Source: Pseudomonadota bacterium
Lineage (GTDB): Bacteria > Pseudomonadota > Gammaproteobacteria > UBA6429 > Thiohalophilaceae
Assembly: GCA_022340685.1 (NCBI GenBank)
Contig: JAJDNN010000049.1
Coordinates: 1 to 51,925 of the forward strand
DNA length: 51,925 bases
Direction of reading: 5' to 3'
Part shown: in pieces, positions 1,247-29,026 of the stretch
How positions within the stretch are numbered: position 1 is the first letter of the stretch
How the letters are laid out: every line of letters begins with the position of its first letter
Program-made: the position numbers and the translations under genes
The notes under the pieces: model-generated
Told to the model about the DNA's origin: nothing
The model's input: the letters and a program-made list of their open reading frames with translations, nothing else
Database searches by the model: none

Positions 1247-4356
<3,110 letters not shown>

Positions 4357-4369
<13 letters not shown>

Positions 4370-5382: not shown

Positions 5383-5400
5383 GTGTGGTGCCGGACTAGA

Positions 5401-6168
5401 TCAATAGCGTAGCTTGTACCAGGCGATACCCAGGAGTTCGTGCAGCACAAAATAGTTGTTACGCAAGGCCTCGATGCTGGGCAGAAACTCCATCAGTAGA
5501 GGGGCATCCCCCCGCTGGCCCATAAAGCCGGTGGGTGCCGGGATAACTTCCAGCCCATTGGCCTCGAAGGCCATACGAGCGCGCGGCATATGGAACGCGG
5601 TGGTGACCAGATAAATGCGCTGCACACCAGCCGGTTTCAGAATGGCTGCGGACAGGCGGGCGTTTTCCCAGGTATTGCGGGATTCACTTTCCACCCAGCG
5701 CACCGGTACACCGTAATCCTTTTGCAGTGTGTCACGCATGAGTTGCGCTTCGCCCGAATGCTCGCTGGCGAACACCGTGCCGCCGGTGACCAGCAGCGGC
5801 AGATGCAACTGACGCTGCAGCCAGGCGCCATAACGGACCCGCTCCAGGGTTGCCTTCGACAGGGTGTCCTGACCGCCGTATTCCGGGGCATCGATATTGC
5901 GTCCGCCCGCCAGGATCACGATGGCCTGCGCGTTCAGATAGTGAAGATCCTTTGATGTCAGGGCGCGATCCCCTTCCAGCAGACCAGCATTAAAATTGGC
6001 CACCAGCGGCGTACTTAGTAGGACCAGCAGGGTAAAGCCGGAAAACACCAGGAATTTGCCGGTGAACGGGAAACGCCGCGCCAGGATGTAGCCCAGCAGC
6101 ATCAGCAGGATGACATTGCCTGGTGGTAGCAGGAATATCTGGATTACTTTGGTCAGCAGGATATCCAT
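5401..6168 (-). CDS. DUF218 (YdcF/ElyC-like) envelope protein
   Basis: Track ORF trimmed to the internal ATG giving MDILLTKVIQIFLLPPGN, which removes the overlap with lipA. N-terminal TM helices are followed by AIVILAGGRN and TTAFHMPRA, both typical of DUF218. Confidence 0.75.
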   Translation of the reverse strand: MDILLTKVIQIFLLPPGNVILLMLLGYILARRFPFTGKFLVFSGFTLLVLLSTPLVANFNAGLLEGDRALTSKDLHYLNAQAIVILAGGRNIDAPEYGGQDTLSKATLERVRYGAWLQRQLHLPLLVTGGTVFASEHSGEAQLMRDTLQKDYGVPVRWVESESRNTWENARLSAAILKPAGVQRIYLVTTAFHMPRARMAFEANGLEVIPAPTGFMGQRGDAPLLMEFLPSIEALRNNYFVLHELLGIAWYKLRY

Positions 6169-6190
6169 TCCGGATGGGCAGGCCTGTGGG

Positions 6191-7162
6191 CTAGATTTTC
6201 TCTCCGGCGGCCTGTTTATCGGCGTGATAGGAGGATCGGACCATCGGGCCACTGGCAACATTACTGAAGCCGAGCGCGTAGCCCAGTGTTTCCAGTTCCG
6301 CGAATTCTTCCGGCGTCACATAACGGCTGACCGGCAGGTGATGGCGGCTTGGCTGCAGGTACTGGCCCAGGGTCAGCATGTCACAGTCATGTTGGCGAAG
6401 ATCGCGCATGACCTCCGCCACTTCCTGCAAGGTTTCACCCAGCCCCAGCATCAGGCCCGATTTGGTGGGCCGGTCAGGTTGCCGTTGTTTGAACGATTGC
6501 AGCAATTGCAGGGAGCCGTGGAAGTCGGCGCCGGGCCGGGACTGGCGATAGAGTCGAGGCACAGTTTCCAGGTTGTGATTGAACACGTCCGGCGGCGTGG
6601 CTGCCAGGATGTCCAGTGCGATCTCGGCCCGACCACGAAAATCCGGCACCAGGATCTCGATACCGGTTTGCGGGCTGTGCTGCCGGGTGGCCGTGATGCA
6701 GGCGGCAAAATGGCCGGCGCCACCATCACGCAGGTCGTCCCGATCCACCGAGGTGATGACCACGTAGTTCAGTTGCATGGCGTGGATGGTGCGCGCCATG
6801 TTGTCGGGTTCCGCGGTATCCAGGGGTCCGGGCCGGCCGTGGGCAACGTCACAAAATGGACACCGCCGCGTGCAGATGTCGCCCATGATCATGAAGGTGG
6901 CGGTGCCATGCCCGAAGCACTCGCCGATATTCGGGCAGGCGGCTTCTTCACAGACCGTGTACAGGTTCTGCTGGCGCAAGATCTTTTTAAGCCGGGCTAC
7001 CGCCGGGGTGTTGGGTGCGCGGGCGCGGATCCAGCGCGGTTTGGCCAGCGGCACCGCCGGCTGAACGACCTTGACCGGGATACGGGCGGTTTTCGATTCG
7101 CCTTTCAGGGGATTGGCCGGGCGGGGCAGAACTTCATCCGGGACTTCGGTGGGTTTGGTCAT
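6191..7162 (-). CDS. lipA: Lipoyl synthase
   Basis: Radical-SAM CxxxCxxC (CTRRCPFC) plus [12 protein letters not shown]. Trimmed to the ATG at 7162-7160 ([10 protein letters not shown]), 2 nt after the lipB stop. Confidence 0.95.
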
Positions 7163-7164
7163 GA

Positions 7165-7830
7165 TCAGGGTTCGGCGGGTGCAAGTATCGGCGCATTGTA
7201 GCCCAGATGGCCCAGCAGGTGTTCGACCAGCCGCGCCCGTATTTCCGGTAACGGCGCCTCGATGCCCAGATCCCGGCACCGGGTCACGGCCTGGCCCGCA
7301 TAGCCACAGGGGTTGATGCGGGAAAAGGGTTCCAGCTCGAGATCCACGTTGAAAGCCAGACCATGATAACTGCGGCCATGGCGGATACGCAGCCCCAGCG
7401 CGGCGATCTTTGCCTTGTCCACATACACCCCCGGGGCGTCCTTGCGTCCTTCGGCCGGGATGCCGAAATCCTGTAACACGTCGATCACCGCCTGTTCCAT
7501 GCTACGCACCAGTGCCTTTACCCCCATGTGTCGCCGTTCCAGGTCCAACAGGGTATAGATCACAATCTGGCCCGGACCGTGATAGGTCACCTGGCCGCCC
7601 CGATCGACCTGTAGCACCGGTATTCGCCCCGCGGCGAGAACGTGCTCCGGTTTGGCGTTGAGACCCAGGGTAAAAATCGGGGGGTGTTCCACCAGCCACA
7701 GTTCGTCCGTTGTTTCAGCGCCGCGGCTGGCGGTAACAGCCTGCATGTCCCGCCATACCGGTTCATAGCTACGCTGACCCAGCTGGCGAATGATGATGGC
7801 AGAGGGATCGGTGCGCATCGGGCTTGGCAT
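7165..7830 (-). CDS. lipB: Octanoyltransferase
   Basis: 221 aa with [25 protein letters not shown] and PCG motifs. Lies immediately upstream of lipA. Confidence 0.9.
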
Positions 7831-7908
7831 CAGTCAGAGAGGGGATAAGGGTGGTGGTTGACGGGCATTATAGTCCAGGCGAGAGGGACGGTCCCTTATA
7901 CCGGTTTT

Positions 7909-8172
7909 TTAAAGTGTCATCACCACTGCCTCATGGGCATTGAGGTCAAGGTAAATGTTGTCGAGTTGTTGCTTGCTGGTGGCGGTCAGTGTGACTGTAA
8001 TTGCAAGATAGTTCCCTTTGCTGCTGGCGTTACGGCGCACCGCGCCATCCTTCAGATCTGGCGCATGGTTGCGGACAATGGCGATGATTTCATCTTCCAG
8101 CGTGTCACTGCGGCGGCCCATGATCTTGATGGGGAATTCGCAGGGGAAGGTTAGCAGGGTGTCTTCGCTCAT
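7909..8172 (-). CDS. ybeD: DUF493 / YbeD-family protein
   Basis: 87 aa with FPCEFPIKIMG. Conserved position upstream of lipB. Confidence 0.85.
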   Translation of the reverse strand: MSEDTLLTFPCEFPIKIMGRRSDTLEDEIIAIVRNHAPDLKDGAVRRNASSKGNYLAITVTLTATSKQQLDNIYLDLNAHEAVVMTL

Positions 8173-8227
8173 GGCGGGGATATGGGGCTCGGGCTAACCC
8201 GGTTCAAGCCCGGATCGCGCCCCAAGG

Positions 8228-9103
8228 TCACGCGGTCGTCCCGCTGCGCAGGGCCTGTTTGTAGTCCTGATAAAGGCGGTGCATATGCTGCCACACCGGG
8301 CCCGGTTTACCCGTTCCCACGGTTTTGCCATCGATGCGGGTGACGGGCAGGATTTCCTTGGTCGAGCTGGTGACCCAGATTTCGCTGGCGGATTGCAAGT
8401 CGGATTTTTTAATCACGGCTTCGCGGTAAGGCAGGCCGTGTTGCGTGGCCAGCTCGACCACCAGATCGCGCGTAATACCGGGTAACAGGCAATCGTCCTT
8501 GGGTGGCGTGACAATGACGCCCTCGCTGACGATGAACACATTACTGGCGGCCCCCTCGGTCACATCACCGGCGCGGATCAGGATGGCTTCAGCGGCACCC
8601 TGTTCGACGGCCTGCTGTCGTAACAGGATGTTGGGCAGCAGGGCGATGCTCTTGATATGACAATACTGCCAGCGAATATCGTCCAGCGTAATGGCGCTGA
8701 CGCCGTTTTGCAGCTGTTCGGCCGGCACCGGTGTGAACAGATTACTCATGATAAACACGCTGGGCATGGTGCTGCCGGGAAAGCGGTGGTCGCGTGCGGC
8801 CACTCCGCGAGTGACCTGTAGATAAATGGACTGATCACCACCATCATTTCGCTCGATGACGGTCTCGATCAGTTGCTGCCATTCGGCATCGCTGTGCGGG
8901 TTGTCAATGCGCACCGCGGCCATGCTGTTTTGGAGCCGCTGCAGGTGATGCGCGAGCCGGAAGGGTTTGCCGGCATACACCGGGATCACTTCGTACACCC
9001 CGTCGCCAAAGATGAAGCCCCGATCCAGCACCGGCACACAGGCCTCCTCCAGGGGTAGATAATTGCCGTTGAGATAGACGATTGAAGGAGACGGGTCAGT
9101 CAT
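8228..9103 (-). CDS. dat: D-amino-acid aminotransferase (fold-type IV PLP enzyme)
   Basis: 291 aa. It aligns by eye along its length with Bacillus Dat: DRGFIFGDGVYEVIPVY, YLQVTRG..RDHRFP, DIRWQYCHIKS, VTEGAASNVF and LPGITRD. Confidence 0.8.
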   Translation of the reverse strand: MTDPSPSIVYLNGNYLPLEEACVPVLDRGFIFGDGVYEVIPVYAGKPFRLAHHLQRLQNSMAAVRIDNPHSDAEWQQLIETVIERNDGGDQSIYLQVTRGVAARDHRFPGSTMPSVFIMSNLFTPVPAEQLQNGVSAITLDDIRWQYCHIKSIALLPNILLRQQAVEQGAAEAILIRAGDVTEGAASNVFIVSEGVIVTPPKDDCLLPGITRDLVVELATQHGLPYREAVIKKSDLQSASEIWVTSSTKEILPVTRIDGKTVGTGKPGPVWQHMHRLYQDYKQALRSGTTA

Positions 9104-9197
9104 GGTTTTATGCTACAGGTTGGTTTAACAGGGGAGTGAGAGCAGTGCGGGCTGCGAGAACGTCTACCGCATCGGCTTCCATCCCTTGCTTGCCTGG

Positions 9198-10361
9198 TTA
9201 CTGAAATTTCAGTTTTATCGTGTCTACCAAGCGGCGCCACAGGCTGCCTTCGGGGATAGATTCCAGCGCTATCAGGGGACGACTGGCAATTTCCGTATCA
9301 CCCAGCATGACATTTACCGTACCGTACGGTTGACCCTTTTGGGCCGGGGCAATCAAGGTGGTTTCGACGGTCATGTTGGCCTTGACCTTGTTACGCTGGC
9401 CGCGCGGGATGGTGATATACAGATCCTCCGCTGTGCCCAGTGGCAGCATTTCCTTTGCGCCTTTCCAGATCCGCATTTCCTTCATGGGCTTGTTGGCCGC
9501 GTGTAACAGGAAAGTTTCGTAAAAACGGAAACCGTAATTGAGCAGTTTGCGACTGGCGGTAGCGCGGGCCTTGTCTGACTTGGTGCCTACCACCACGGAA
9601 ATGAGCCGCATCTCGTCTTCCTTGGCCGAGGTGACGAGACAGTAACCGGCCGATTCGGTATGGCCGGTCTTGATGCCGTCAACCCGATCATCCAGCCACA
9701 ACAGGCGATTGCGGTTGAACTGACGAATGCTGTTATAGGTGTACTCCTTGACCTTGTACCAGGCATAGTGCTCCGGGAATTCCTCGATCAGTGCGCGGGA
9801 CAGGATCGCAAGGTCATGGGCCGTTGTGTAATGATCGTCATCCGGCCAGCCGGTACTATTGGTGAAATGCGTGCCTTTCATCCCGAGCGCCATCGCATAC
9901 TGGTTCATGAGCTGGACAAAGCCATCTTCGCTGCCAGCCACATGTTCTGCCAGTGCGACGCTGGCATCATTGCCGGACTGGATGATCATTCCTTTGAGCA
10001 GATCCTCGACCGAAACCAATTTGTTTACTTCGATGAACATGCGTGAACCTTTCATCTTCCACGCCTTCTCGCTGATGCGCACTTCATCCTGCAGACTGAT
10101 GCTGCCGTCAGCAATAGCATGCAGTACTGCGTAGGCGGTCATCATCTTGGTAAGACTCGCCGGCTCGATTCGCTCATTGCTGTTGTGTTTGGCCAATACC
10201 CTGCCACTTTGGTAATCCATCAGTAGCCAGGCACTGGCGTTGAGGGTCGGTGGCGTCGGGACGGTGACGGGTGCAGCGCCGGCCTGCAGGCTGCCAAGCA
10301 ACAGCCAGAATCCGGTGCACAGGGTAGCTATGCGTAGGGTAAATAGTCTGTAATTTTTCAT
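9198..10361 (-). CDS. dacC: D-alanyl-D-alanine carboxypeptidase (PBP5/6 class)
   Basis: Trimmed to MKNYRLFTLRI (signal peptide). Motifs SLTKMMT (SxxK), SGND (SxN) and KTGHT (KTG). Confidence 0.9.
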   Translation of the reverse strand: MKNYRLFTLRIATLCTGFWLLLGSLQAGAAPVTVPTPPTLNASAWLLMDYQSGRVLAKHNSNERIEPASLTKMMTAYAVLHAIADGSISLQDEVRISEKAWKMKGSRMFIEVNKLVSVEDLLKGMIIQSGNDASVALAEHVAGSEDGFVQLMNQYAMALGMKGTHFTNSTGWPDDDHYTTAHDLAILSRALIEEFPEHYAWYKVKEYTYNSIRQFNRNRLLWLDDRVDGIKTGHTESAGYCLVTSAKEDEMRLISVVVGTKSDKARATASRKLLNYGFRFYETFLLHAANKPMKEMRIWKGAKEMLPLGTAEDLYITIPRGQRNKVKANMTVETTLIAPAQKGQPYGTVNVMLGDTEIASRPLIALESIPEGSLWRRLVDTIKLKFQ

Positions 10362-10434
10362 GGGGCAATATTCTACCCGTTCGGGCAAAAAAAAACCTGA
10401 CCTGGTTCAATGGTCCTTATTCAATTGAAAGCGG

Positions 10435-11247
10435 TCAGTCGATAACGATGTGGGGCGGGGTGAATCCCTTCCGGGTCAGGGTCATGGCCAGCTCATCCGC
10501 TTCATCAACACTGGCCAGCGGGCCAATCCGCACCCGGTACAATTTCTCATTCGCGTTGTAGGCCGACTGGATGGTCAGGCGGGTAAACTGCCGGTGCAAT
10601 TTGTCGCGCAACTGTTCGGCATTGTGACGGCTTACAAAGGCGCCAACTTGCAAGTACAGCTGCATTTCGGCCTCGGTTGCACTCTCCTCGCTGGCAGTAC
10701 GAGGGACCTGGGACGGCATCGCGCCGGGACGCAGAACGGTCACCTCCACCATCCCGGTCCCGGTGTCAATGATGCCGAGTTTTTTGGCCGCCACATAGGA
10801 AAGATCGATCAGGCGGTTCTGGTGAAACGGACCGCGGTCGTTGACGCGCACTATCACTGACTTCCGGTTTTTCAGGTTGGTGACCCGTACATAGCTGGGC
10901 AGGGGCAAGGTCTTGTGGGCCGCAGACATGGCATACATGTCATAGGGCTCGCCACTGGATGTGCGATGGCCGTGAAACTTCTTGCCATACCAGGAAGCAA
11001 TGCCCCGTTCCGAATAGCCATCGGCCGAATTCAACACCGTATAACGACGGCCATAAACGGTGTAGGAATCCGGGTTGCCATATTTGCTGAGTGGCTCGTT
11101 CCGGGGCACGGCATCGGGCACCTGGCTGACATCAATGTCGCGGACCGGTGCGCTGTCGTGGCGCTGGCTGTAACGAGACGTGGAACAACCGGCCAGGAGC
11201 AGGCCGGGGACAAGCAGGATTAAGAATGTCTTGTTTCGATAGTTCAT
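10435..11247 (-). CDS. rlpA: Septal-ring lytic transglycosylase RlpA (DPBB plus C-terminal SPOR domain)
   Basis: Lipobox LLLAGCS. ASWYGKKFHGHRTSSGEPYD DPBB motif and a SPOR-like C-terminus. 4-nt overlap with mltB. Confidence 0.9.
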   Translation of the reverse strand: MNYRNKTFLILLVPGLLLAGCSTSRYSQRHDSAPVRDIDVSQVPDAVPRNEPLSKYGNPDSYTVYGRRYTVLNSADGYSERGIASWYGKKFHGHRTSSGEPYDMYAMSAAHKTLPLPSYVRVTNLKNRKSVIVRVNDRGPFHQNRLIDLSYVAAKKLGIIDTGTGMVEVTVLRPGAMPSQVPRTASEESATEAEMQLYLQVGAFVSRHNAEQLRDKLHRQFTRLTIQSAYNANEKLYRVRIGPLASVDEADELAMTLTRKGFTPPHIVID

Positions 11248-12260
11248 TGCTTCCCGGGTGATGATTCGCTGGCCAGCTTCATGCGGCGGGACTTAATGTC
11301 CTGGCTTAACTGATAGACTGCCATCGAATACAGCGCACTATGATTATAGCGGCTGATAACATAAAAGTTGTGCCACCCAACCCAGTATTCCGGGCCGTCG
11401 CGGCCGTCCAGTTTGATCAGACTCCCTTTCAGATCCGGTGACAGGCCCTTGGGCAGAATGACGCCGTTGTCCATCAGTTGCTGCGGGGTGTAGCGTGGGG
11501 TCAGATCGCCGTCCAGAAGTTGCTTGTAACGTTCACCGTGGACCTTGACCGGAACGACGACAGGTTCGCCCGGTTGCCAGCGATGTTGTTTGAAATAATT
11601 GGCCACGCTACCAATTACATCGGCATTATCGGTCCACAGGTTACGTTTGCCGTCATTGTCAAAGTCCACCGCGTAGCGGCGGAAACTACTGGGAATGAAC
11701 TGAGGCATGCCCATAGCACCGGCATAGGAGCCGAGTTGTCCAGCCGGGGCCAAACCCTCTTCACGTGCCATAAGCAGATATTCCGTGAGCTCCTTGCGGA
11801 AAAACTGACTGCGTGGCGGATAGGCAAAGGCCAGGGTGGACAGCGCATCGAGTACCCGGTAGTTACCGGAGTTCTTACCGTAGCGGGTTTCCACTCCGAT
11901 GATCGCGATCAGGATTTCTTCCGGCACACCGTAGATTTGTTTGGCTCTGGTCAGAGTGGCGGCGTTGTTTTTCCAGAACTCGACACCGCCGCGACTGCGA
12001 TCGGCAGTCAGGAAAATCAGTCGGTATTCATACCAGGGTTTGCTTTCTGCGGGTCGCGAAATGGCATCCAGAATGCTTTGCTGGATCCGCGCTTGTTGAA
12101 ACAGTTGCTGTAATTGTTTGGCATTGAATTTGTGCTGCCGGGCCATTTCTTCAACAAACTGGTTCACCACAGCAGTATCCGGTTGCCGAGTTTCTGCCAG
12201 GGCAGTTCCACTCACAAGGAAGATCAACAGCAAGAGGGGGCGATACATCATAGGAGTCAC
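11244..12260 (-). CDS. mltB: Lytic murein transglycosylase B
   Basis: 338 aa with a signal peptide. GVETRYG, GAMGMPQFIPSSF and RYNHSALYSMAV motifs of the MltB/SltB family. Confidence 0.9.
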   Translation of the reverse strand: MTPMMYRPLLLLIFLVSGTALAETRQPDTAVVNQFVEEMARQHKFNAKQLQQLFQQARIQQSILDAISRPAESKPWYEYRLIFLTADRSRGGVEFWKNNAATLTRAKQIYGVPEEILIAIIGVETRYGKNSGNYRVLDALSTLAFAYPPRSQFFRKELTEYLLMAREEGLAPAGQLGSYAGAMGMPQFIPSSFRRYAVDFDNDGKRNLWTDNADVIGSVANYFKQHRWQPGEPVVVPVKVHGERYKQLLDGDLTPRYTPQQLMDNGVILPKGLSPDLKGSLIKLDGRDGPEYWVGWHNFYVISRYNHSALYSMAVYQLSQDIKSRRMKLASESSPGKQ

Positions 12261-12269
12261 ATCAGGTAT

Positions 12270-13409
12270 TCAGGTTGAGATCAATTTACGGTGGGTCTGG
12301 ATTGACATAAGGATACCGAATCCGGCCAACAGGGTCACGATGGATGTTCCACCATAACTGAGCAGCGGTAATGGCACACCCACTACCGGCAAAAGGCCAG
12401 ATACCATTCCCATATTAACAAATATGTAGACAAAGAAAGTCAGCGTAATACTCCCGGCCAATAATCGGCAAAAGGTGTCCTGGGCTTGAGCCGAGATGTA
12501 CAACCCGCGCCAGACCACAAACAGATACAGGCCCAGCAGGATCAATAGCCCCAGGAATCCGAATTCCTCCGAGAACACGGCGAAAATGAAATCGGTTGAG
12601 CGTTCCGGCAGAAAGTCCAGGTGAGACTGGGTCCCGTTCAACCAGCCCTTGCCATACATCCCGCCCGAGCCAATAGCGATCTTGGACTGTCTGATGTGAT
12701 AGCCGGCGCCGAGGGGATCGATATCCGGATTCAGGAAGGTGAGAACCCGGCGGCGCTGGTAGTCGTGCAGCAGATAAATCCACACTACGGGCGTGACCGC
12801 TGCGAACAGCGTGAACACCGTGGCAATCAGCCGAAAGCCCAGTCCCGCCAGCCACAGGACGAAGATACTGGCGCTGGCGATGAGCAGGGCGGTCCCCAGA
12901 TCCGGTTGCTTGGCAATCAGCAGGGTGGGGATGAGCAGGATCACGGCGGCAATGAAAATGCGTACGCGGTTCGGTGGCAGCGGCGCTTCAGCAAGATACC
13001 AGGCCAGCATCATGGGTACTGCCAGCTTCATGATTTCCGAGGGTTGAAAGCGCAGCACGCCGAGATCCAGCCAGCGTTGTGCCCCCTTGCCGATTTCGCC
13101 ACCGATGAGCACTGCAACCAGCATCAATAGCCCGATGCCGAATAGCCAGGGTGACCAGAACTGAATGGTGGACGGTGATAGCTGGGCGATCACAAACATG
13201 ACCGCAAAAGCCAGCGCCAGTCGCAGTCCCTGGCGGATGACCAGATCCAGGTTTTCATCGCCAGCGCTGTACAGAATGAACAGCCCGGCCGCGGCCAGCA
13301 ACAACAGTCCGACCAACAGGGGTAGATCGATATGCAGCCGTTGCAGAATGCGTCGTCCGGCACTGATCCGGGTCGCATCGGCAAATTCGGGTTGGGAGCT
13401 CAGGCTCAT
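12270..13409 (-). CDS. rodA: Peptidoglycan glycosyltransferase RodA (SEDS)
   Basis: 379-aa polytopic membrane protein. FQPSEIMKL, TDFIFAVFSEEFGF and LPLLSYGGTS are SEDS signatures. Confidence 0.95.
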   Translation of the reverse strand: MSLSSQPEFADATRISAGRRILQRLHIDLPLLVGLLLLAAAGLFILYSAGDENLDLVIRQGLRLALAFAVMFVIAQLSPSTIQFWSPWLFGIGLLMLVAVLIGGEIGKGAQRWLDLGVLRFQPSEIMKLAVPMMLAWYLAEAPLPPNRVRIFIAAVILLIPTLLIAKQPDLGTALLIASASIFVLWLAGLGFRLIATVFTLFAAVTPVVWIYLLHDYQRRRVLTFLNPDIDPLGAGYHIRQSKIAIGSGGMYGKGWLNGTQSHLDFLPERSTDFIFAVFSEEFGFLGLLILLGLYLFVVWRGLYISAQAQDTFCRLLAGSITLTFFVYIFVNMGMVSGLLPVVGVPLPLLSYGGTSIVTLLAGFGILMSIQTHRKLIST

Positions 13410-21332: not shown

Positions 21333-22205
21333 ATGAAAGATATCCTGCAACGCTTCCTGTTTGAAAATGCGGACATCCGCGGTGACCTGGTGCATCTGGA
21401 TGCGACCTGGCAGGCGGTGCTGGACAAGCATGACTATCCCGAACCGGTGCGCAAGCTGTTGGGCGAGATGATGGTGGCGTCGGTTTTGTTGTCTGCTACG
21501 CTGAAATTCAAGGGACGGATGACTATCCAGATCCAGGGCGATGGGCCGATATCGCTAATGGTTGTCGAATGCACCAGTGAACGCACATTGCGTGGCCTGG
21601 CGCATGCGGCGGAAGATCTGCCGGATGGTGACCTTGGTACATTGGTCGGCCCGGGACGCCTTGCCATTACCCTTGAGCCGGATGACGGTCCGGAACGTTA
21701 CCAGAGTATTGTGGAACTGACCGGTGATACACTCAGTGAAGTGCTTGAAAACTACCTGGATATCTCTGAACAGCTGGACACCCGTCTCTGGTTAGCAGTG
21801 GATAACCAGCGGGCAGCCGGCCTGTTGATTCAGAAGCTGCCGGTTGCCAAGCCGCGATCGGATACCGATGCATGGAACCGGATTAGCAAACTGTCATCGA
21901 CCATCCGGGATGAAGAACTGTTGAACCTCTCCGCGCTGGAGATCATCCATCGTCTATATCACGAAGAGGGTGTGCGGGTTTTCGAAGCCGAAGCCGTCTG
22001 TTTCCGCTGCAGTTGTGATCGTGAGCGGGTAGGCAACATGCTCCGTACCCTGGGATTGGAGGAAGTTCGGTCAATTATTCGTGACGAAGGTAGCGTACGG
22101 GTTGCGTGTGAATTCTGTAACCACAAGTATGAGTTTGATGTGATAGATACCGAGCAGTTGTTCGCGGCCGAACTGCCCCCGGACGTGCCGACCACCCGGC
22201 ATTAA
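21333..22205 (+). CDS. hslO: Redox-regulated chaperone Hsp33
   Basis: The track start (TTG 21285) was trimmed to the ATG giving MKDILQRFLFENADIRGDLVHLD. C-terminal zinc centre CFRCSC ... CEFCNHKYEF. Confidence 0.9.
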   Translation: MKDILQRFLFENADIRGDLVHLDATWQAVLDKHDYPEPVRKLLGEMMVASVLLSATLKFKGRMTIQIQGDGPISLMVVECTSERTLRGLAHAAEDLPDGDLGTLVGPGRLAITLEPDDGPERYQSIVELTGDTLSEVLENYLDISEQLDTRLWLAVDNQRAAGLLIQKLPVAKPRSDTDAWNRISKLSSTIRDEELLNLSALEIIHRLYHEEGVRVFEAEAVCFRCSCDRERVGNMLRTLGLEEVRSIIRDEGSVRVACEFCNHKYEFDVIDTEQLFAAELPPDVPTTRH

Positions 22206-22246
22206 TGCCTTCCAACAGCTATAATTACAATGTGATGCAATTTTTT

Positions 22247-22474
22247 ATGAATACGAACAGGAATCACACTACCAGCCTAATGATTCTGGTCCTGATGGCG
22301 ACCATGCTGGTTTCGGCCTGCAGCAGCCAGGAAGTCAATCGGACCCTGTACAGCACCTTGGGAAATATCGGTGACCAGCAATGCAGCAAGGAAACCCTGG
22401 CTAACTGTCAGCAACAGCAGGGCTATGCAACCTATCGCAAGGAACGCGAACAGGTATTGGACGGGCAAAACTAG
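22247..22474 (+). CDS. Small putative lipoprotein (hypothetical)
   Basis: Internal ATG gives MNTNRNHTTSLMILVLMATMLVSAC|SSQE, a signal peptide plus lipobox. 75 aa. No family recognised. Confidence 0.5.
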   Translation: MNTNRNHTTSLMILVLMATMLVSACSSQEVNRTLYSTLGNIGDQQCSKETLANCQQQQGYATYRKEREQVLDGQN

Positions 22475-22559
22475 ACCGCATGGCCTGGCGGGAAGAAATG
22501 CTGCCTGGCGTCTTTCAAAAATCCGGCTAGGTCTGGATATCTCAACATCGTTATCGATT

Positions 22560-23081
22560 ATGCGCCGCGACCATGATGAACTGGGCGACTATCCTGTAAT
22601 CCCTAAGACGGAACTCGGGAAACTACGCGGGTTGGTGTTGATTACGACGCTACTTTTTCTGGCGGGGGTGCTCAGCCCGATGTTGACGGTCACCCGGTTC
22701 ATGGTAGTGAACAACACTTTTTCAGTTGTTTCCGGAATTTTCCAGCTGCTGCAAGACGGCCAGTATATCCTCTTCATTGTGGTGGCCGGATTCAGTGTGG
22801 TTTTACCCCTGCTGAAGCTATGGGTGCTTTACCGCCTAACCGGGATCGATGCACAAAAGCCCCGGCGTATGGCGCATTATCTATACTGGATGCATGAATA
22901 CGGGCGTTGGGCCATGCTGGATGTGATGGTGGTGGCAGTTTTGATCGTGGCTGTCAAACTTAAGATGGTGGCAAGTATCGAAGTCCACTATGGTCTGTAT
23001 CTGTTTGGTGGGGCAGTCCTGATGATGAGCTATCTTACCCACAGGATCGTGCGCATGACCGACACACCACGGGGCCGCTAA
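22560..23081 (+). CDS. Single-module PqiA-like (paraquat-inducible protein A family) membrane protein
   Basis: Track ORF trimmed to the ATG at 22560 (MRRDHDELGDYP). The TM pattern with FSVVSGIFQLL, VVLPLLKLWVL and YGRWAMLDVMVVAVLI resembles one PqiA repeat. Only 173 aa. Confidence 0.6.
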   Translation: MRRDHDELGDYPVIPKTELGKLRGLVLITTLLFLAGVLSPMLTVTRFMVVNNTFSVVSGIFQLLQDGQYILFIVVAGFSVVLPLLKLWVLYRLTGIDAQKPRRMAHYLYWMHEYGRWAMLDVMVVAVLIVAVKLKMVASIEVHYGLYLFGGAVLMMSYLTHRIVRMTDTPRGR

Positions 23082-23166: not shown

Positions 23167-24102
23167 TCAGACATCACGCCGAAAATAGTTGTTAGTGATG
23201 TCGTTATGGATGGTGATCAGACCAGCCTGAAGTTTGTCGATATATGTGTGCAATTCGACCTGTTTGAGTCTATCTGGATTGGCGTCGAGCACGGTTTGTT
23301 GAAGTTGCTTAATGTGTTTTACGCTTTGCGCATGTCCTGGCAGGTGTTCTAAACAGGATTCCACTTCGCACAAGGTATGGTATACCGCACGCGGAAAGCT
23401 GCGCTCCTGCAACAGGAATTTCAACACATCAGGTCGTCGCACACGAATCTGAATTATGCGGCGGTACATCTGATAACCGGTTAATGATTTCAAGACGCTC
23501 ATCCATTGAATGTTTTCATACGGGGTGAGGTTTTCTTCGTGTTCTTCTTCTAATAAGTCGGCTGAGCGTACATCAATGATGCGCGTGGTCATGTCGGCGC
23601 GTTCCAGGTTTCGGCCTATGCGCAGAAAATCATAACCGATGTCGTGATACATAGTACCGGCGAGTTGACCAGTAAGGGTTTGTGCGCCGAGGATAATTTT
23701 TTGCAAATAGCTGTGACGGTTCTTGCGCGCAATTCCGGATTGGGCGTTGGACTTGGCATAGATAAACAAGTCATTAATACTTTCCCATGTTTCACGTGGA
23801 ATGATATCGCGTATAGTACGAGCATTTTCACGCGCACCTTGCAACGAGGTATGAATCGAACCGGGGTTGAGCAAGTCAGAAATCATGAATTTTAGAATGT
23901 GGCGTTCGTCGGCGATATCATGGTGTGTGTTAAAGATTTCTTCGCTACCCATGATCTCGATGATCGGTTCCCAGCCGACGTTTGCACTGCGCGGTAAATC
24001 CAAAATTAAGTTAGTGGTAACACTGAGTAGGCGTGCAGTGTTTTCAGCCCGCTCTATATAACGGGCCATCCAGTATATGTTTTCAGCCACGCGCGATAGC
24101 AT
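23167..24102 (-). CDS. Alpha-E domain protein (COG2307 / DUF403)
   Basis: 311 aa beginning MLSRVAENIYWMARYIERAENTARLL, the characteristic alpha-E N-terminus. Lies 2 nt downstream of the ATP-grasp gene, with a GGAGGGAGG Shine-Dalgarno sequence. Confidence 0.85.
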   Translation of the reverse strand: MLSRVAENIYWMARYIERAENTARLLSVTTNLILDLPRSANVGWEPIIEIMGSEEIFNTHHDIADERHILKFMISDLLNPGSIHTSLQGARENARTIRDIIPRETWESINDLFIYAKSNAQSGIARKNRHSYLQKIILGAQTLTGQLAGTMYHDIGYDFLRIGRNLERADMTTRIIDVRSADLLEEEHEENLTPYENIQWMSVLKSLTGYQMYRRIIQIRVRRPDVLKFLLQERSFPRAVYHTLCEVESCLEHLPGHAQSVKHIKQLQQTVLDANPDRLKQVELHTYIDKLQAGLITIHNDITNNYFRRDV

Positions 24103-24104
24103 AT

Positions 24105-25562
24105 TTAGCCTCCCTCCATGTCGACAATCCAGGTATCTTTGGAACCGCCTCCTTGTGAGGAGTTGACCACAGTAGAGCCTTTGCGTAAGGCCACGCGGGT
24201 CAGCCCGCCTGTGGTGACGTATGTGTTATCACGGCCGGACAAAATAAATGGGCGCAGATCCATGTGCCGGGGTTCCACCCGGTTACCGACCAGGGTAGGT
24301 GCGGTGGACAGGGTGAGCATAGGTTGTGCCACATAGTTACGAGCATCACGCTTGATTAAACGTTTGAATTTTTCCCTTTCCTGTTTGCTGGCCTGCGGAC
24401 CAATCAGCATGCCATAACCACCGGATTCGTTGGCGGGCTTGACCACCAGCTTGTCGATGTTTTCCAGAACATGGTTGCGTTCGATTTTGTTATTGCATTT
24501 GTAGGTCGGTACGTTGGGAATCAGTGCGTCTTCACCGAGATAATATTTTATGATCTCCGGCACATAAGCGTACACAACTTTATCATCAGCCACACCGGCA
24601 CCTGGTGCATTGGCCAATGCTACATTACCTGCCTTCCAGGCTCGCATTAAACCCGGAACACCGAGCATGGAGTCCGGTTGAAATACCTCAGGGTCGATGA
24701 ACATGTCATCAATACGCCGATAGATTACGTCGACACGTGACAGACCCTCGACTGCGCGCATGTACACGACATCTTTGTCATCCACATACAGGTCACTACC
24801 TTCCACCAGTTCGGCGCCCATTTGTTGTGCCAGGTAGGAGTGTTCAAAGTAAGCAGAGTTATAAATACCAGGTGTCAGTACCACGATCTCCGGTTGTTCG
24901 ATGTCTCGCGGTGATATCGACGCAAGAGTGTCGTACAGTTGTGAGGGATAGTCATCCACCGGCAGAATGTTGTAGTCTTCAAATAAATCCGGAAACACGC
25001 GTTTCATGACCATGCGGTTTTCCAACATGTACGAGACACCGGATGGGACACGCAGGTTATCTTCTAACACGTACACTGTGCCTTTATCGTCGCGTACCAA
25101 GTCTGAACCACAGATGTGCGCCCAGATATTACTTGGCGGTGTAATGCCAACGCATTGTGGTCGAAAGTTTACTGAGTCTTGCAATAACTCGGAGGGAAAA
25201 ACTTTATCTTTGACTATTTTTTGATCGTGATACAAATCATCGATAAACAGGTTTAATGCCTGTACGCGTTGTTTGAGTCCACGTTCAATCTGGTCCCATT
25301 CATTTTTATTTATGATTCTAGGGATAATGTCGAACGGCCAGGCTCGATCAATGGAGCCTTCTGCTTCGCTATATACGGTGAAGGTAATCCCCATTACATG
25401 AATTGCCAGCTCAGCTGCGGCTTTGTAATCTTCTATTTCTTTATCATTTAGAGCGCGTAGATAATCGCATAGAGGTTTGGCTGCATCGCGGGGTTTGTTT
25501 GCAGCGCGGATAAGTTCATCATAGATGCCTTTTACTTTGTAACTGCCCCATCGAATGGCCAT
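24105..25562 (-). CDS. Circularly permuted type-2 ATP-grasp protein (COG2308; DUF404/DUF407)
   Basis: 485 aa. The overall pattern (GITFTVY, DRAWPFDIIPRI, VLEDNLRVPSGVSYMLENR, VVKPANESGGYGM) matches the cpATP-grasp family that pairs with alpha-E. Confidence 0.85.
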   Translation of the reverse strand: MAIRWGSYKVKGIYDELIRAANKPRDAAKPLCDYLRALNDKEIEDYKAAAELAIHVMGITFTVYSEAEGSIDRAWPFDIIPRIINKNEWDQIERGLKQRVQALNLFIDDLYHDQKIVKDKVFPSELLQDSVNFRPQCVGITPPSNIWAHICGSDLVRDDKGTVYVLEDNLRVPSGVSYMLENRMVMKRVFPDLFEDYNILPVDDYPSQLYDTLASISPRDIEQPEIVVLTPGIYNSAYFEHSYLAQQMGAELVEGSDLYVDDKDVVYMRAVEGLSRVDVIYRRIDDMFIDPEVFQPDSMLGVPGLMRAWKAGNVALANAPGAGVADDKVVYAYVPEIIKYYLGEDALIPNVPTYKCNNKIERNHVLENIDKLVVKPANESGGYGMLIGPQASKQEREKFKRLIKRDARNYVAQPMLTLSTAPTLVGNRVEPRHMDLRPFILSGRDNTYVTTGGLTRVALRKGSTVVNSSQGGGSKDTWIVDMEGG

Positions 25563-25587
25563 AAAAATCGTATTGCTTATGAATGTG

Positions 25588-25604
25588 AATTGACTATATC
25601 AATT
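25588..25604. promoter_or_regulatory. 17-bp inverted repeat AATTGA-ctata-TCAATT flanked by GAATGT direct repeats (candidate operator)
   Basis: Read directly in the 142-bp divergent region between the ATP-grasp and Anbu genes: atGAATGTgAATTGACTATATCAATTggtatatgGAATGTaa. Confidence 0.3.
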
Positions 25605-25704
25605 GGTATATGGAATGTAAAATGAGCGCGCAGTTTTAACTATTTTGTGTTATTAAAATGACCCTTCGCACAATTTTGGTGCGTCTGCCAGGAAAAAAAG
25701 AACA

Positions 25705-26439
25705 ATGACCTATTGTGTAGCAATTAAGGTGGATGAAGGCCTTGTGCTGGCGTCCGATTCACGCACCAATGCGGGGGTGGACTATATTCGTACCTACAGC
25801 AAGATGCATACGTTTAACTGGCCAAACGACAGAACGCTGGTCATTTTAATGTCTGGCAACCTGGCCACTACCCAGGCGGTTATGAATCAAATACATCATG
25901 ACCTGGAGAATGAGGGTGACCACTTTAATTTGCGCAAAGCCAAGCACTTGTTTGAAATCGCTCATTACGTAGGATGTGTTAGTCAGAAAGAACAGGGTGA
26001 ACACGCTAAGGCATTTAAAGACAATTGCGAAACTCTGGAAGCCAATTTTATTGTTGGTGGTCAGATTGGTGAACAGGATGATGAAATTTATCTGGTTTAC
26101 CCTGAGGGGAATTATATTACCGTGTCACCGGAAACCCCATACATGCAAATCGGTGAAACCAAGTATGGCAAACCGATTCTGGATAGAATTATTACTGGTG
26201 AGATCAGTCTGAATGATGCAGCCCGTTGCGCTCTGGTCTCACTGGATTCCACCATGCGCAGTAATATTTCTGTAGGTCCACCATTGGAACTGGCCATTTA
26301 CACAGCAAACTCTCTGGCCGAACCACGTTACTACAAAATTGATCTAAACACACCGTTGTACACAGAGATACAAGAGCGTTGGGGTGAAGGATTACAACAG
26401 GCATTTAAAAACCTACCCAAGTTTGAGTGGGAAAGTTAA
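25705..26439 (+). CDS. Anbu-type proteasome beta-subunit homologue (Ntn hydrolase)
   Basis: 244 aa starting MTYCVAIKVDEGLVLASDSRTNAG. Thr follows the initiator Met directly, so there is no propeptide. Later GGQI...IYLVYPEGN and a proteasome-beta-like core. Linked to cpATP-grasp and alpha-E as in Anbu operons. Confidence 0.8.
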   Translation: MTYCVAIKVDEGLVLASDSRTNAGVDYIRTYSKMHTFNWPNDRTLVILMSGNLATTQAVMNQIHHDLENEGDHFNLRKAKHLFEIAHYVGCVSQKEQGEHAKAFKDNCETLEANFIVGGQIGEQDDEIYLVYPEGNYITVSPETPYMQIGETKYGKPILDRIITGEISLNDAARCALVSLDSTMRSNISVGPPLELAIYTANSLAEPRYYKIDLNTPLYTEIQERWGEGLQQAFKNLPKFEWES

Positions 26440-26445
26440 TTTTTA

Positions 26446-27519
26446 TCAGGTTGACATTACAACACGGTGAATAAACTCCAGTTTATTAATCACCATTGGT
26501 GAATGCTCAAATGGGTACGGATCGGGAAACCCCAGGCTGCGATTCAACTCATTGAGCGTGCGCATTAGTTTCACCAGTTGTGCGATGATGCTGCCAAAGT
26601 CATGAAACTCAAGCCAATCGCGTAAATTATTTTGGGTATATTTGATTTCATCACCTTGAATACCGACATGATGATGGCTAGCAGTTTCCAGAACGTCCAT
26701 AAAATGCAGGTAGTGCGCCCAGCTTTCGGCCCAGTCCTCCCAGGGATGTGAGCTAGCATATGCACTGATGAAATTATCCGGCCAGTTGTCTTGTGGGCCG
26801 TTTTGATAATACAGTGATAATGAGCTTTTGTAATCATTACGTTCGTCACCGAATAGCATACGAAACTCATCAAGCCGATCCGTTCGTGCAATAAACTGGT
26901 CCCAGTAGTAGTGCCCGATCTCATGACGAAAGTGCCCCAAGATAGTGCGATAAGCTTCATTCATGAGTACCCGGATTTTTTCGCGCTCGCTGTCGTCGGC
27001 TTCCAGAATATTAATGGTAATGGTGCCGGCATTGTGACCAGTCATAATTTCCTGATAGGTCACCATTTCCTCAGAGAACATATCAAATCCCTTGATATCT
27101 TCCATAAATCGAAAGGCCAGGCCGCGGTCCTTATTTTGATGATAAGTAATGATCGGCAGGCGCAGGGTCAACAAGGTGTAGATAAGGCGCCGTTTAGCAT
27201 TTTCTAACTTCCGCCAGCGTTGTTCGTTCTCAGATTTGGATAAGTCTGGAATAACTTCGTTCAGCCGACAAGCTAGACAATATGATTCATTTTCCCTGGC
27301 GGGTATCAACCAGTTGCAGACGTTGGAATTTTGATAATTGTCACACTTGCGAAAATTTAGACTGGGGTCGCTATCTGATTGCCAATCACCCGCCTCTGTT
27401 TGGACCAGGGGTATTACATCCAGTCTATCTGGGTCAAAACCCAATGATTTACCACACTGCAAACACTGAGTGTTGTCAAAATACAAGGTATTTCCACATG
27501 TGCAATTAAATGTTCGCAA
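26446..27519 (-). CDS. Zinc-ribbon plus HExxH metallopeptidase-like protein (Peptidase_Mx-type)
   Basis: 357 aa. TTG start 5 nt after GAGGT. N-terminal CTCGN...CLQCG ribbon and HEIGHYYW (HExxH). Tail-to-tail with Anbu, separated by a 6-bp gap. Confidence 0.75.
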   Translation of the reverse strand: MRTFNCTCGNTLYFDNTQCLQCGKSLGFDPDRLDVIPLVQTEAGDWQSDSDPSLNFRKCDNYQNSNVCNWLIPARENESYCLACRLNEVIPDLSKSENEQRWRKLENAKRRLIYTLLTLRLPIITYHQNKDRGLAFRFMEDIKGFDMFSEEMVTYQEIMTGHNAGTITINILEADDSEREKIRVLMNEAYRTILGHFRHEIGHYYWDQFIARTDRLDEFRMLFGDERNDYKSSLSLYYQNGPQDNWPDNFISAYASSHPWEDWAESWAHYLHFMDVLETASHHHVGIQGDEIKYTQNNLRDWLEFHDFGSIIAQLVKLMRTLNELNRSLGFPDPYPFEHSPMVINKLEFIHRVVMST

Positions 27520-27784
27520 GGTTTACCTCGATTTTAATTTTAGCATAACGATAAGAGCATCATGGGATGGTAACATTAAATATCGAAACGAAAATGAGTT
27601 TACATATAGTAATATATAATATTAAGAGAAATGGGAATATATTAGGTGTTGTAATACTGAAAAGATTATAAACAGTATGAAATAAAGGTATGGAAAAACA
27701 GAGATATTCACGTGCTTAGCTAATTGCTAACTGATTGCCTCATGTAATTGACTAACAAATTTTAAAATTTTTCGCAAAAACTAC

Positions 27785-28222
27785 TTACGTTACTAATAAT
27801 TCATTTATTTTAAATGAGCAACCAAAGTATGATGCTATATTTTCCGTTACCCCTTTAATCTGGTTTCGCTCGTATTCCTGTTTTTCCTTAGTGCCCCAAA
27901 CAACATTTGGCCAGCAATAATCTCCTTTTTGTCTACCTACTACATGGATATGCAATTGTCTTACAATATTTCCGATTGCAGCTACATTTAATTTTTCGAT
28001 TGAATATGTCGACTTGATAAAAAGAGATTGTTCGCAAATTGTTTTATACAAACTATCCTGTTCATCTTGGCCGAGTTCATATATTTCTATTTTTTTAGTT
28101 TCTGGTACTAGAATAAACCATGGCACGAGAGCATTATTCATTAATAATAAATTGATTCCATTTAATTTACCAAGAACTATACAGTCCTTCTCCAACCGCG
28201 GATCCAATTTGAAGTTACTCAT
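27785..28222 (-). CDS. HIT-family (histidine triad) nucleotide hydrolase/transferase
   Basis: Histidine triad QLHIHVVGR. The track start is TTG at 28267. The ATG at 28222 (MSNFKLDPRLEKDC) is more likely. Very AT-rich coding sequence: hand count 21/60 GC on line 28021. Confidence 0.7.
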   Translation of the reverse strand: MSNFKLDPRLEKDCIVLGKLNGINLLLMNNALVPWFILVPETKKIEIYELGQDEQDSLYKTICEQSLFIKSTYSIEKLNVAAIGNIVRQLHIHVVGRQKGDYCWPNVVWGTKEKQEYERNQIKGVTENIASYFGCSFKINELLVT

Positions 28223-28282
28223 TCTCACATGCCATTTTGCTAATGAATTTTTAATATAATTTTTCAAAACCTGGTTCGTTTT

Positions 28283-29026
28283 TCAGGCCGTGCCGCAGCC
28301 ACTGCAGCCCGGGTCTTTTTTCAGGGTCAGGGTACGCCACTCCATGTGCAGGGCATCGAGTAGTAGCAGGCGGCCATGCAGGGTTTCCCCCATGCCAGCC
28401 AGGATCTTGATTGCCTCGGTGGCCTGAATCGCGCCGATGATGCCGACCAGTGGCGCGAGGACGCCATTTTCACTGCAGCGGTTGTCAAGTTCTCCCTCCT
28501 CCCGGTACAGGCAGCGGTAGCAGGGGCCATCGCCGTTGTTCAGGAATACCGCCACCTGGCCTTCCATCCGGATCGCCGCACCCGAAACCAGCGGCACCCC
28601 GGCTGCCACACAGGCATCGTTGACTGCAAAGCGGGTGGCAAAGTTATCGCTGCCATCCAGCACCACGTCGGCTGCGGTGATGTGCTGCTGCAGTTCCATG
28701 CCTTCCAGCTTGTGATCGACAAGCGTGAGTTTGACATCGGGGTTGAGCTTTCGCAGGGCATCGCGTGCCGATTCCACCTTGGGTCTGCCAATGTCATCGG
28801 TGTGGTGAATAATCTGGCGCTGCAGGTTGGAAAGCTCCACCGTATCGAAATCGACCAGCACCAGATGGCCAACACCAGCGGCGGCCAGGTACATGGCCGC
28901 CGGTGAGCCCAGTCCACCCAGTCCAATGATCAGGACAGTGGCATCGAGCAGCTTCTGTTGCCCGGCCACATCGAATTGAGGCAGCATGATTTGACGGCTG
29001 TAGCGAAGAAGTTGGGCGTCATCCAT
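28283..29026 (-). CDS. moeB: Molybdopterin-synthase adenylyltransferase (ThiF/MoeB E1-like)
   Basis: 247 aa. RYSRQIMLPQFDVAGQQKL, GLGGLGSP nucleotide loop, and zinc CxxC pairs CYRC and CSGC. Follows prmC, as in Pseudomonas. Confidence 0.85.
   Translation of the reverse strand: MDDAQLLRYSRQIMLPQFDVAGQQKLLDATVLIIGLGGLGSPAAMYLAAAGVGHLVLVDFDTVELSNLQRQIIHHTDDIGRPKVESARDALRKLNPDVKLTLVDHKLEGMELQQHITAADVVLDGSDNFATRFAVNDACVAAGVPLVSGAAIRMEGQVAVFLNNGDGPCYRCLYREEGELDNRCSENGVLAPLVGIIGAIQATEAIKILAGMGETLHGRLLLLDALHMEWRTLTLKKDPGCSGCGTA

Follow-up and report, generated by a model that had tools for sequence, protein, structure and literature searches.

Which hydrolase accompanies the ligase when an Anbu locus has no transglutaminase? 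The question is raised by positions 23167-27519 of contig JAJDNN010000049.1, which we analyzed over its full 51,925 nucleotides (the window). The source is a gammaproteobacterium related to Sulfuriflexus, and the locus encodes a circularly permuted ATP-grasp ligase (cpATP-grasp; gene cpGrasp), an alpha-E protein, the proteasome homolog Anbu, and a zinc-ribbon protein of the Peptidase_Mx family (Mx). On balance, and with modest confidence, we read these four genes as a self-contained, horizontally mobile, cytoplasmic ligase/hydrolase module that represents a distinct branch of cpATP-grasp/alpha-E systems. The canonical Anbu operon (COG2308 - COG2307 - COG1305 - Anbu), exemplified by the P. aeruginosa PA1733 (Anbu) operon and the Y. 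bercovieri operon, has reportedly been treated by Valas and Bourne in 2008, Iyer et al. in 2009, Fuchs in 2017, and Piasecka in 2018. Its gene order is cpATP-grasp, alpha-E, transglutaminase, and Anbu, and its function is unsolved (PMC3235984, PMC5666114, PMC6376114, PMC8665760). The parts of the window module are as follows.

23167..24102, minus strand: Alpha-E protein, 311 amino acids (aa), second gene of the ligase operon; Pfam PF04168 over its full length, E 1.6e-89
24105..25562, minus strand: cpATP-grasp type 2 ligase, 485 aa; Pfam PF14403 (CP_ATPgrasp_2 / COG2308), E 7e-169, 562 bits
24109..24117, minus strand: GGAGGGAGG, Shine-Dalgarno sequence for alpha-E as read from the sequence, inside the 3' end of cpGrasp
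25563..25704, between the strands: divergent control region of cpGrasp and Anbu, 142 bp; a divergent gap of 87-400 bp is kept in 11 other species
25593..25621, minus strand: candidate (predicted) sigma-70 promoter for cpGrasp-alphaE, TTTACA-N17-TGnTATAGT
25705..26439, plus strand: Anbu-1-type proteasome homolog, 244 aa; Pfam Proteasome 3e-9, and phmmer against the PDB
26446..27519, minus strand: Zn-ribbon plus Peptidase_Mx protein, 357 aa, TTG start; Pfam PF10005 2e-29 and PF15887 3e-95
26911..26925, minus strand: HEIGH zincin motif of Mx (H199-E200-x-x-H203), invariant among 53 homologs
27238..27510, minus strand: N-terminal double zinc-ribbon of Mx, residues 4-94, with 8 invariant Cys; Pfam Zn_ribbon_DZR_6

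The original prediction, made from the letters alone, had placed four open reading frames (ORFs) of 311, 485, 244, and 357 aa here in a noncanonical layout. Their coordinates and lengths are as claimed, and all four domain assignments are upheld, by Pfam for Alpha-E, cpATP-grasp, and Zn-ribbon/Mx and by phmmer for Anbu. The proposed 2-nt spacing of cpGrasp and alpha-E and its ribosome-binding site can be read at the junction, ...GGAGGGAGGC TAA at ATG, and translation of alpha-E is predicted to be coupled to that of cpGrasp via the embedded Shine-Dalgarno sequence. Anbu opens with MTYCVAIKVDEGLVLASDSRTNAG (MTYC...), placing Thr right behind Met with no propeptide, as described. Its TAA stop (26437-26439) faces the Mx stop (TCA on the plus strand, 26446-26448) tail to tail at the expected distance of 6 bp. 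Mx starts at a TTG preceded by GAGGT, and this start matches the N-terminus of all homologs. The layout departs from the canonical one in the three ways first noted: Anbu is divergent, a putative metallopeptidase is adjacent, and no transglutaminase or DUF2126 was detected by a hidden Markov model (HMM) search of all six frames of the entire 51.9-kb window, with models for the small transglutaminase and for the transglutaminase-N (TGase-N)/DUF2126 protein.

A phmmer search of PDB sequences with the 244-aa protein recovered the designed Anbu-1 consensus 5LOY (Cons-Anbu-1) at E 2.6e-74 and four natural Anbu structures (5NYW, 5LOX, 5NYJ, 5NYF) at about 1e-60 to 4.8e-54 (5NYF), far better than 20S beta subunits (E 3e-3 only); the same search gave no match to HslV. 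By these matches, the protein is Anbu, as had been proposed, and neither HslV nor a 20S beta subunit. The 5LOY alignment extends to residue 243/244, C-terminal region included, and T1, D17, and K32 are invariant in an alignment of the window Anbu, Cons-Anbu, and six Mx-linked Anbus. Anbu forms a multisubunit, self-compartmentalizing, proteasome-like particle, and Pa-Anbu binds proteasome inhibitors (PMC5666114).

The 357-aa protein scores 318.5 bits against Peptidase_Mx (cutoff 27) and 102.3 bits against Zn_ribbon_DZR_6 (cutoff 23.4). Its membership in the HExxH family stands (PF15887 3e-95, HEIGH invariant), and the ribbon and motif originally pointed out are present as C6xC8...C19xxC22 and H199-E-I-G-H203. 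The first Cys set (C6, C8, C19, C22) and a second quartet (C59, C68, C81, C84) are invariant across the 53 homologs, as are H199, E200, H203, and a downstream acidic/His set (H258, E261, D262, and E265) that may supply the third metal ligand; an invariant block lies downstream, HPWEDWAE...HYLH. A Foldseek search of the PDB with an AlphaFold2 model of Mx (53 sequences; predicted local distance difference test score 88.6, predicted template modeling score 0.89) gave no match below E 1e-3. The top hit, anthrax lethal factor at E 0.12, echoes an earlier, weak FFAS link that assigned DUF2248 to lethal-factor-like zincins (PMC3650047). Searched as a profile against the sequences in the PDB, Mx gave a single marginal match (9URD, [quoted passage not shown], E 0.12). 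We call Mx a putative metallopeptidase on the basis of its invariant motifs, its Pfam family, and the weak similarity to lethal factor, not of a solved relative. A literature search for Peptidase_Mx/DUF2248/COG4307 found the zincin survey PMC3650047 and nothing on gene context.

Conservation and mobility of the four-gene block

We scanned an alignment of Mx over one genome per species and obtained 80 loci from many phyla, which were annotated by tblastn and HMM, with the neighborhood set at 10 kb. Arrowheads mark gene direction in the layouts recovered.

10 of 80 loci: the window layout, Mx> <Anbu cpGrasp> alphaE> (L008-L012, L014, L017, L025, L028, L041)
2 of 80 loci: other combinations of Mx and Anbu (L016, cpGrasp>alphaE>Mx> <Anbu; L007, Mx, <DUF2126, <Anbu, cpGrasp>)
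6 of 80 loci: Mx with cpGrasp-alphaE and no Anbu (L015, L019, L021, L043, and L074, Mx>cpGrasp>alphaE; L038, cpGrasp>alphaE>Mx)
13 of 80 loci: Mx beside DUF2126/transglutaminase-type cpATP-grasp operons (L013, L027, L033, L034, L035, L040, L048, L053, L057, L058, L065, L066, L082)
about 49 of 80 loci: Mx without a cpATP-grasp-system gene within 10 kb, for example in Pseudomonas, where Mx follows ligA

The window layout also occurs in Sulfuriflexus mobilis (L167, complete genome AP018725.1), whose Mx is 86% identical to that of the window, and in a metagenome-assembled genome (MAG; L168) whose Mx is 66% identical. Overall, the exact layout is present in at least 14 species-level lineages from several orders, with conserved gaps between Mx and Anbu (2-84 bp), between the divergent Anbu and cpGrasp (87-400 bp), and between cpGrasp and alpha-E (2-8 bp). 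Among its hosts are Sulfuriflexus, Thiohalomonadales, Paraglaciecola, Glaciecola, Pseudidiomarina, Sedimenticola, and, with the caution that MAG labels call for, a bin assigned to Nitrospirota; cultured carriers are S. mobilis, Glaciecola sp. XM2, and Pseudidiomarina halophila.

The three components co-vary. In neighbor-joining trees, computed without support values, the 13 Mx-linked Anbus all fall into a single long-stemmed clade. The cpATP-grasp proteins form an Mx-adjacent clade, with or without Anbu, whose members are 66-80% identical to the window protein, a canonical transglutaminase/Anbu-type clade (46-53%), and a DUF2126-type clade (31-35%). Module-linked Mx proteins form a single clade of 19, separate from orphan Mx proteins, with the L015 Mx as an outlier.

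The block is flanked in the window by gatCAB-hslO and moeB-prmC-prfA-hemA, whereas in S. mobilis it sits among molybdoenzyme and DsrE genes, not hslO/moeB. GC content at third codon positions (GC3) is 0.45-0.52 in the four module genes versus 0.62-0.72 in the flanks, and the base composition of the block is foreign to its surroundings in the window. Given the different context in S. mobilis and this compositional shift, the four genes travel as a unit.

These data effectively refute a chance juxtaposition of a metallopeptidase gene with an Anbu/cpATP-grasp cluster. Such an accident would accord with the convergent transcription of Mx and Anbu and with the fact that most sampled Mx genes are unlinked to cpATP-grasp. 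However, it would leave unexplained a four-gene geometry kept across orders, the congruence of the component clades, the other chromosomal context in S. mobilis, and the foreign base composition common to all four genes. In addition, 31/80 Mx loci have cpATP-grasp-system genes within 10 kb, and we estimate the chance expectation for such linkage of any single-copy family at well under 1%. The original prediction had left it to neighborhood analysis whether the adjacency of Mx and Anbu is unique to this genome; conservation and co-variation show that it is not.

Other Mx contexts were noted in the course of this survey. In Pseudomonas, Mx lies directly downstream of ligA, the gene for NAD-dependent DNA ligase (L044, L052, L054, L061-L063, L071, L073, L075, L076), with no cpATP-grasp within 10 kb. 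Matches to Mx occur in 190 plasmid records, 135 of them from Ralstonia, and the two that were inspected, one with a lone Mx and one with a DUF2126-type context, do not carry the Mx+Anbu block. Genes for GGDEF diguanylate cyclases are immediate neighbors of Mx or the module in several unrelated genomes (L014:8726-9742, L019:4416-5525, L025:14396-15595, L168:6303-7964, and L173:10088-11779), one case being an Azospirillum plasmid with a lone Mx; our impression is that this may be commoner than by chance.

Mx, the transglutaminase, and the ligase pair

A second sample was centered on Anbu: metagenome contigs were scanned with an Anbu alignment, taking the neutral Anbu-1 consensus as reference, and the 80 loci obtained were annotated by HMM. 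Mx is present in 0/80 of these Anbu-consensus-like loci. Transglutaminase (TG) is directly upstream of Anbu in about 42/80, made up of about 31 complete cpGrasp>alphaE>TG>Anbu operons and 11 truncated TG>Anbu loci. The order cpGrasp>alphaE>Anbu>DUF2126 is found in 6-7, cpGrasp>alphaE>Anbu in 4, Anbu>TG in 4, and a divergent arrangement in 2 (L092, L096), the rest being orphan or truncated. The Mx layout is a minority architecture among Anbu loci. Among loci with both Mx and Anbu, 11/12 have no transglutaminase or DUF2126 within 10 kb, and Mx and the small transglutaminase are mutually exclusive among Anbu-containing modules only. The earlier suggestion that Mx replaces the transglutaminase is therefore borne out within Anbu-type modules but fails as a general rule, since 13/80 Mx loci and a Caballeronia megaplasmid have both.

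Two unusual loci bear on this slot. L007 and L169 (8001-17089) share a variant in which <DUF2126 <Anbu is divergent from cpGrasp>, with Mx adjacent (L007) or about 3 kb off (L169), so that all three candidate hydrolases are united. L092 has an Mx-clade cpGrasp and a divergent Anbu but no Mx. There, a Pfam-less 421-aa ORF overlaps the alpha-E stop and could be another occupant of the hydrolase slot, and a GAF/sigma-54 activator gene is convergent on Anbu (4136-5401 and 8774-10333, both on the minus strand, are the coordinates of these L092 features).

Anbu is dispensable in the Mx clade, where Mx is partnered primarily with the ligase pair rather than with Anbu. Five loci (L015, L019, L021, L043, L074) keep Mx>cpGrasp>alphaE without Anbu, indicating that ligase, alpha-E, and peptidase constitute the core and that Anbu is optional.

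Coupling of Mx to ATP-grasp extends beyond the cpATP-grasp class. In four contexts whose flanks all differ (L168:459-2524; L170:5001-7075; L171:5001-7063; L172:4531-6617), the gene for a ribbon-less Mx paralog shares a 4-nt overlap with that for a D-Ala-D-Ala-ligase-type ATP-grasp. The paralog carries HE[ST]AH, aligned with HEIGH, and HPHEDWAE, and the H258/E261/D262/E265 motif is kept in its subfamily. An hhalign comparison joins the two Mx subfamilies with a probability of 95.8% and E 7e-9, via RHExxH, FG[DN], and YAxxHPxEDWAE. The ribbon-less family comprises at least 7,499 clusters at E <= 1e-5, as counted among no more than 8,000 candidates. As in the window, an Mx core (RHExxH, HPxEDWAE) is genetically coupled to ATP-grasp; unlike in the window, the ATP-grasp is nonpermuted, there is no alpha-E, Anbu, or zinc-ribbon, and the Mx is too divergent for BLAST-level similarity. 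Two unrelated classes of ATP-grasp ligase are thus recurrently coupled to Peptidase_Mx, and the four contexts in which the partner is an unrelated classical ATP-grasp speak for a general pairing of ligase and hydrolase.

We consider it improbable that Mx acts instead as a zinc-ribbon regulator or maturation factor, whether by processing, activating, or gating Anbu or the ligase or by binding nucleic acid. Such a role would accommodate the tightly kept convergent Mx/Anbu pair, the N-terminal double Zn-ribbon, the many orphan Mx genes, and the inactivity of recombinant Anbu, for which an activator is thought necessary (PMC5666114, PMC6376114). However, Mx stays beside cpGrasp-alphaE in the five loci that have no Anbu, and because it persists there it is not an Anbu-specific factor. 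Moreover, Anbu has no propeptide to process, and the HExxH/HPxEDWAE core is invariant, even in the ribbon-less paralogs that accompany another ATP-grasp.

Possible chemistry of the module

In the ligase/hydrolase reading that we favor, cpATP-grasp and the coupled alpha-E would form ATP-dependent amide (peptide or isopeptide) bonds on an acceptor, and Mx would be the dedicated hydrolase of that linkage or of its product, a role ascribed, in canonical operons, to the transglutaminase-like cysteine peptidase. The zinc-ribbon would probably serve substrate recognition. Anbu, with its N-terminal threonine and self-compartmentalizing architecture, would be an optional third component, degrading the polypeptide once it has been marked or released. 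We infer this chemistry, the order of action, any physical complex, and the substrate, and with them a write/erase/degrade mechanism of the kind initially suggested. The evidence is in favor of a hydrolytic (eraser) role for the slot that Mx fills here but falls short of proof, since transglutaminase-domain proteins accompany Mx in DUF2126-type operons. The transglutaminase-like domain of these operons has been predicted to be a peptidase that reverses ATP-grasp peptide tags (PMC3495828), and the Y. bercovieri cpATP-grasp releases inorganic phosphate from ATP (PMC6376114).

A more speculative version, which we regard as rather unlikely, treats the position beside cpATP-grasp/alpha-E as an interchangeable eraser slot that may be filled by a transglutaminase-like Cys peptidase, DUF2126, or Mx. 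The Mx module would then be a minimal mobile writer-eraser-shredder that tags proteins post-translationally, with the zinc-ribbon reading tagged targets and Anbu destroying them. If true, the swap would show that the canonical transglutaminase is a hydrolase and not a cross-linker, and prokaryotes would have in this module a counterpart of ATP-grasp/peptidase tail codes.

Several observations weigh against the favored ligase/hydrolase reading. Mx lies beside transglutaminase/DUF2126 in the 13/80 loci and on the Caballeronia megaplasmid, and given this co-occurrence it may be an added function rather than a substitute. About 60% of the sampled Mx genes have no cpATP-grasp within 10 kb, and Mx and Anbu are convergent, not co-transcribed. 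A hidden small gene for a tag or substrate was considered and rejected, as the module intergenic and flanking DNA has no ORF of at least 18 aa common to species. The best zincin fold match for Mx is not significant (E 0.12), and, to our knowledge, no Peptidase_Mx protein has a known biochemical activity. The trees carry no support values, and the criteria for choosing loci differed between the two samples. Among the canonical operon proteins, pull-downs gave no stable complexes, and Anbu showed no peptidase activity on standard substrates (PMC6376114).

The promoter candidate at 25621-25593 (minus strand) is the best consensus match in the region, at 10/12 with an extended -10; both hexamers are kept in S. 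mobilis (L167) and in L168, although the spacer has diverged. No sigma-54 site was found in the window control region or in 12 related loci. This result is an inference from DNA letters only and contrasts with the canonical Pseudomonas operon, which is strongly induced by nitrogen limitation (PMC3235984, PMC6376114).

That induction is one of the points in favor of a role in metabolite or nitrogen economy, in which the ligase pair would make a small amide-linked compound or a non-ribosomal oligopeptide resembling glutathione, glutathionylspermidine, or cyanophycin, and Mx and Anbu, as catabolic hydrolases, would recycle it. We regard this as possible but doubtful. The closest solved cpATP-grasp homolog, 3N6X (E 5.5e-161), is annotated as a putative glutathionylspermidine synthase, and a gene for such an enzyme (GSP_synth plus CHAP amidase) stands right after alpha-E in the Paraglaciecola locus (L014:14435-16324). 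In marine metagenomes, the domains of the canonical operon vary together with those of urea metabolism (PMC3597751). The Mx paralog pairs with a D-Ala-D-Ala-ligase-type ATP-grasp, which is typically a small-molecule ligase, and the module has no conserved gene for a tag or substrate. Against this, the self-compartmentalizing Anbu particle suits polypeptides better (PMC5666114), the double zinc-ribbon of Mx is typical of macromolecule recognition, no sigma-54/NtrC-type promoter is detectable in the module control region, and the module is not accompanied by any conserved transporter gene or other metabolic gene. Hints on the ligase product, a protein tag or a small amide or oligopeptide, point both ways.

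Neighboring genes and related systems

Three neighbors were examined as further members and rejected, as none is conserved beside the module elsewhere: a HIT gene (27785-28267), a ThiF/MoeB gene (28283-29026), and a PqiA-like gene (22560-23081). The HIT-family gene encodes 160 aa (Pfam HIT 1e-9), has a GC content of 0.32 and a GC3 of 0.28, and is preceded by a 265-bp AT-rich spacer with a GC content of 0.28 (region 27520-28267). Its composition is unlike that of both flanks and module. As other species do not keep it beside the module, it probably represents a separate insertion. The E1-like adenylyltransferase ThiF/MoeB, two genes from Mx, is tempting in a tagging context, but it has host composition (GC 0.61) and is part of the moeB-prmC-prfA-hemA stretch. 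Between hslO and alpha-E, positions 22205-23081 hold an 89-aa ORF with a lipoprotein-like N-terminus and a gene for a half-size, 173-aa, single-domain PqiA-like membrane protein, the latter being the convergent 3' neighbor of alpha-E. This pair is conserved only in the window's own lineage (L001-L006).

No terminator-like structure was found by a scan of the DNA between Mx and Anbu, which converge. An Rfam scan of the window returned two distant tRNAs only and nothing near the module. Identity as a known antiphage defense system was rejected, with 0 PADLOC matches for the four module proteins and the HIT neighbor.

The window module resembles the canonical Anbu operon in its ligase family, in the adjacent, co-directional, and tightly coupled alpha-E gene, in its cytoplasmic proteins, and in its Anbu-1-type Anbu with T1, D17, and K32 intact. 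Unlike that operon, it has no transglutaminase between Alpha-E and Anbu and has a Zn-ribbon Peptidase_Mx. Its Anbu gene, with Mx on one side and the ligase operon on the other, is encoded on the opposite strand, whereas the canonical Anbu is last and co-directional (about 31 complete loci). Its ligase (46-53% identical to canonical ones), Anbu, and Mx fall in separate clades, and it has a conserved sigma-70-like candidate promoter, with no sigma-54-type promoter found.

DUF2126-type operons, such as that of Caballeronia NZ_CP071132.1, encode a transglutaminase-N/DUF2126 protein of ~1100 aa, a cpATP-grasp (with an alpha-E fusion in L082 and Caballeronia), and a small transglutaminase. They share cpATP-grasp and alpha-E with the window, and Peptidase_Mx is often adjacent (L027, L034, L048, L058, L065, L082, L174). 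They differ in that their ligase paralog is 31-35% identical, transglutaminase domains are present, and Anbu is usually absent. On the Caballeronia sp. M1242 megaplasmid (L174, NZ_CP071132.1, locus 1880-12652), Mx lies between two operons, one with DUF2126, fused cpGrasp-alphaE, and transglutaminase and the other a second cpGrasp-alphaE.

In the tubulin tail code, TTL/TTLL ATP-grasp ligases are reversed by vasohibin, a transglutaminase-like Cys peptidase, or by the zinc metallopeptidases CCP/MATCAP. The likeness would lie in an ATP-grasp writer served by an eraser that is either a transglutaminase-like Cys peptidase or a zinc metallopeptidase (PMC3495828), and candidates for both eraser types now stand beside bacterial cpATP-grasp. 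Mx is not homologous to CCP/MATCAP, and the analogy is functional only.

The block is a conserved variant of a known, functionally unsolved system, and it is new unless Iyer et al. 2009, who may already depict the Mx link, drew it; PMC3235984, PMC5666114, PMC6376114, and PMC8665760 do not mention a metallopeptidase. The cpATP-grasp/alpha-E/transglutaminase/Anbu operon has resisted explanation since 2008-2009 despite Anbu structures, with no agreement on whether its transglutaminase is a cross-linker, an ammonia producer, or a peptidase. An unrelated hydrolase fold in the place of the transglutaminase, together with an Anbu that can be lost, argues that the constant core is ligase, alpha-E, and hydrolase, and the Mx branch favors a peptidase that reverses the ligase product over cross-linking. 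The compact, four-gene, transglutaminase-free block is also simpler for reconstitution and genetics. Finally, the large Peptidase_Mx family gains its first consistent functional context, as a partner of two ATP-grasp ligase classes.

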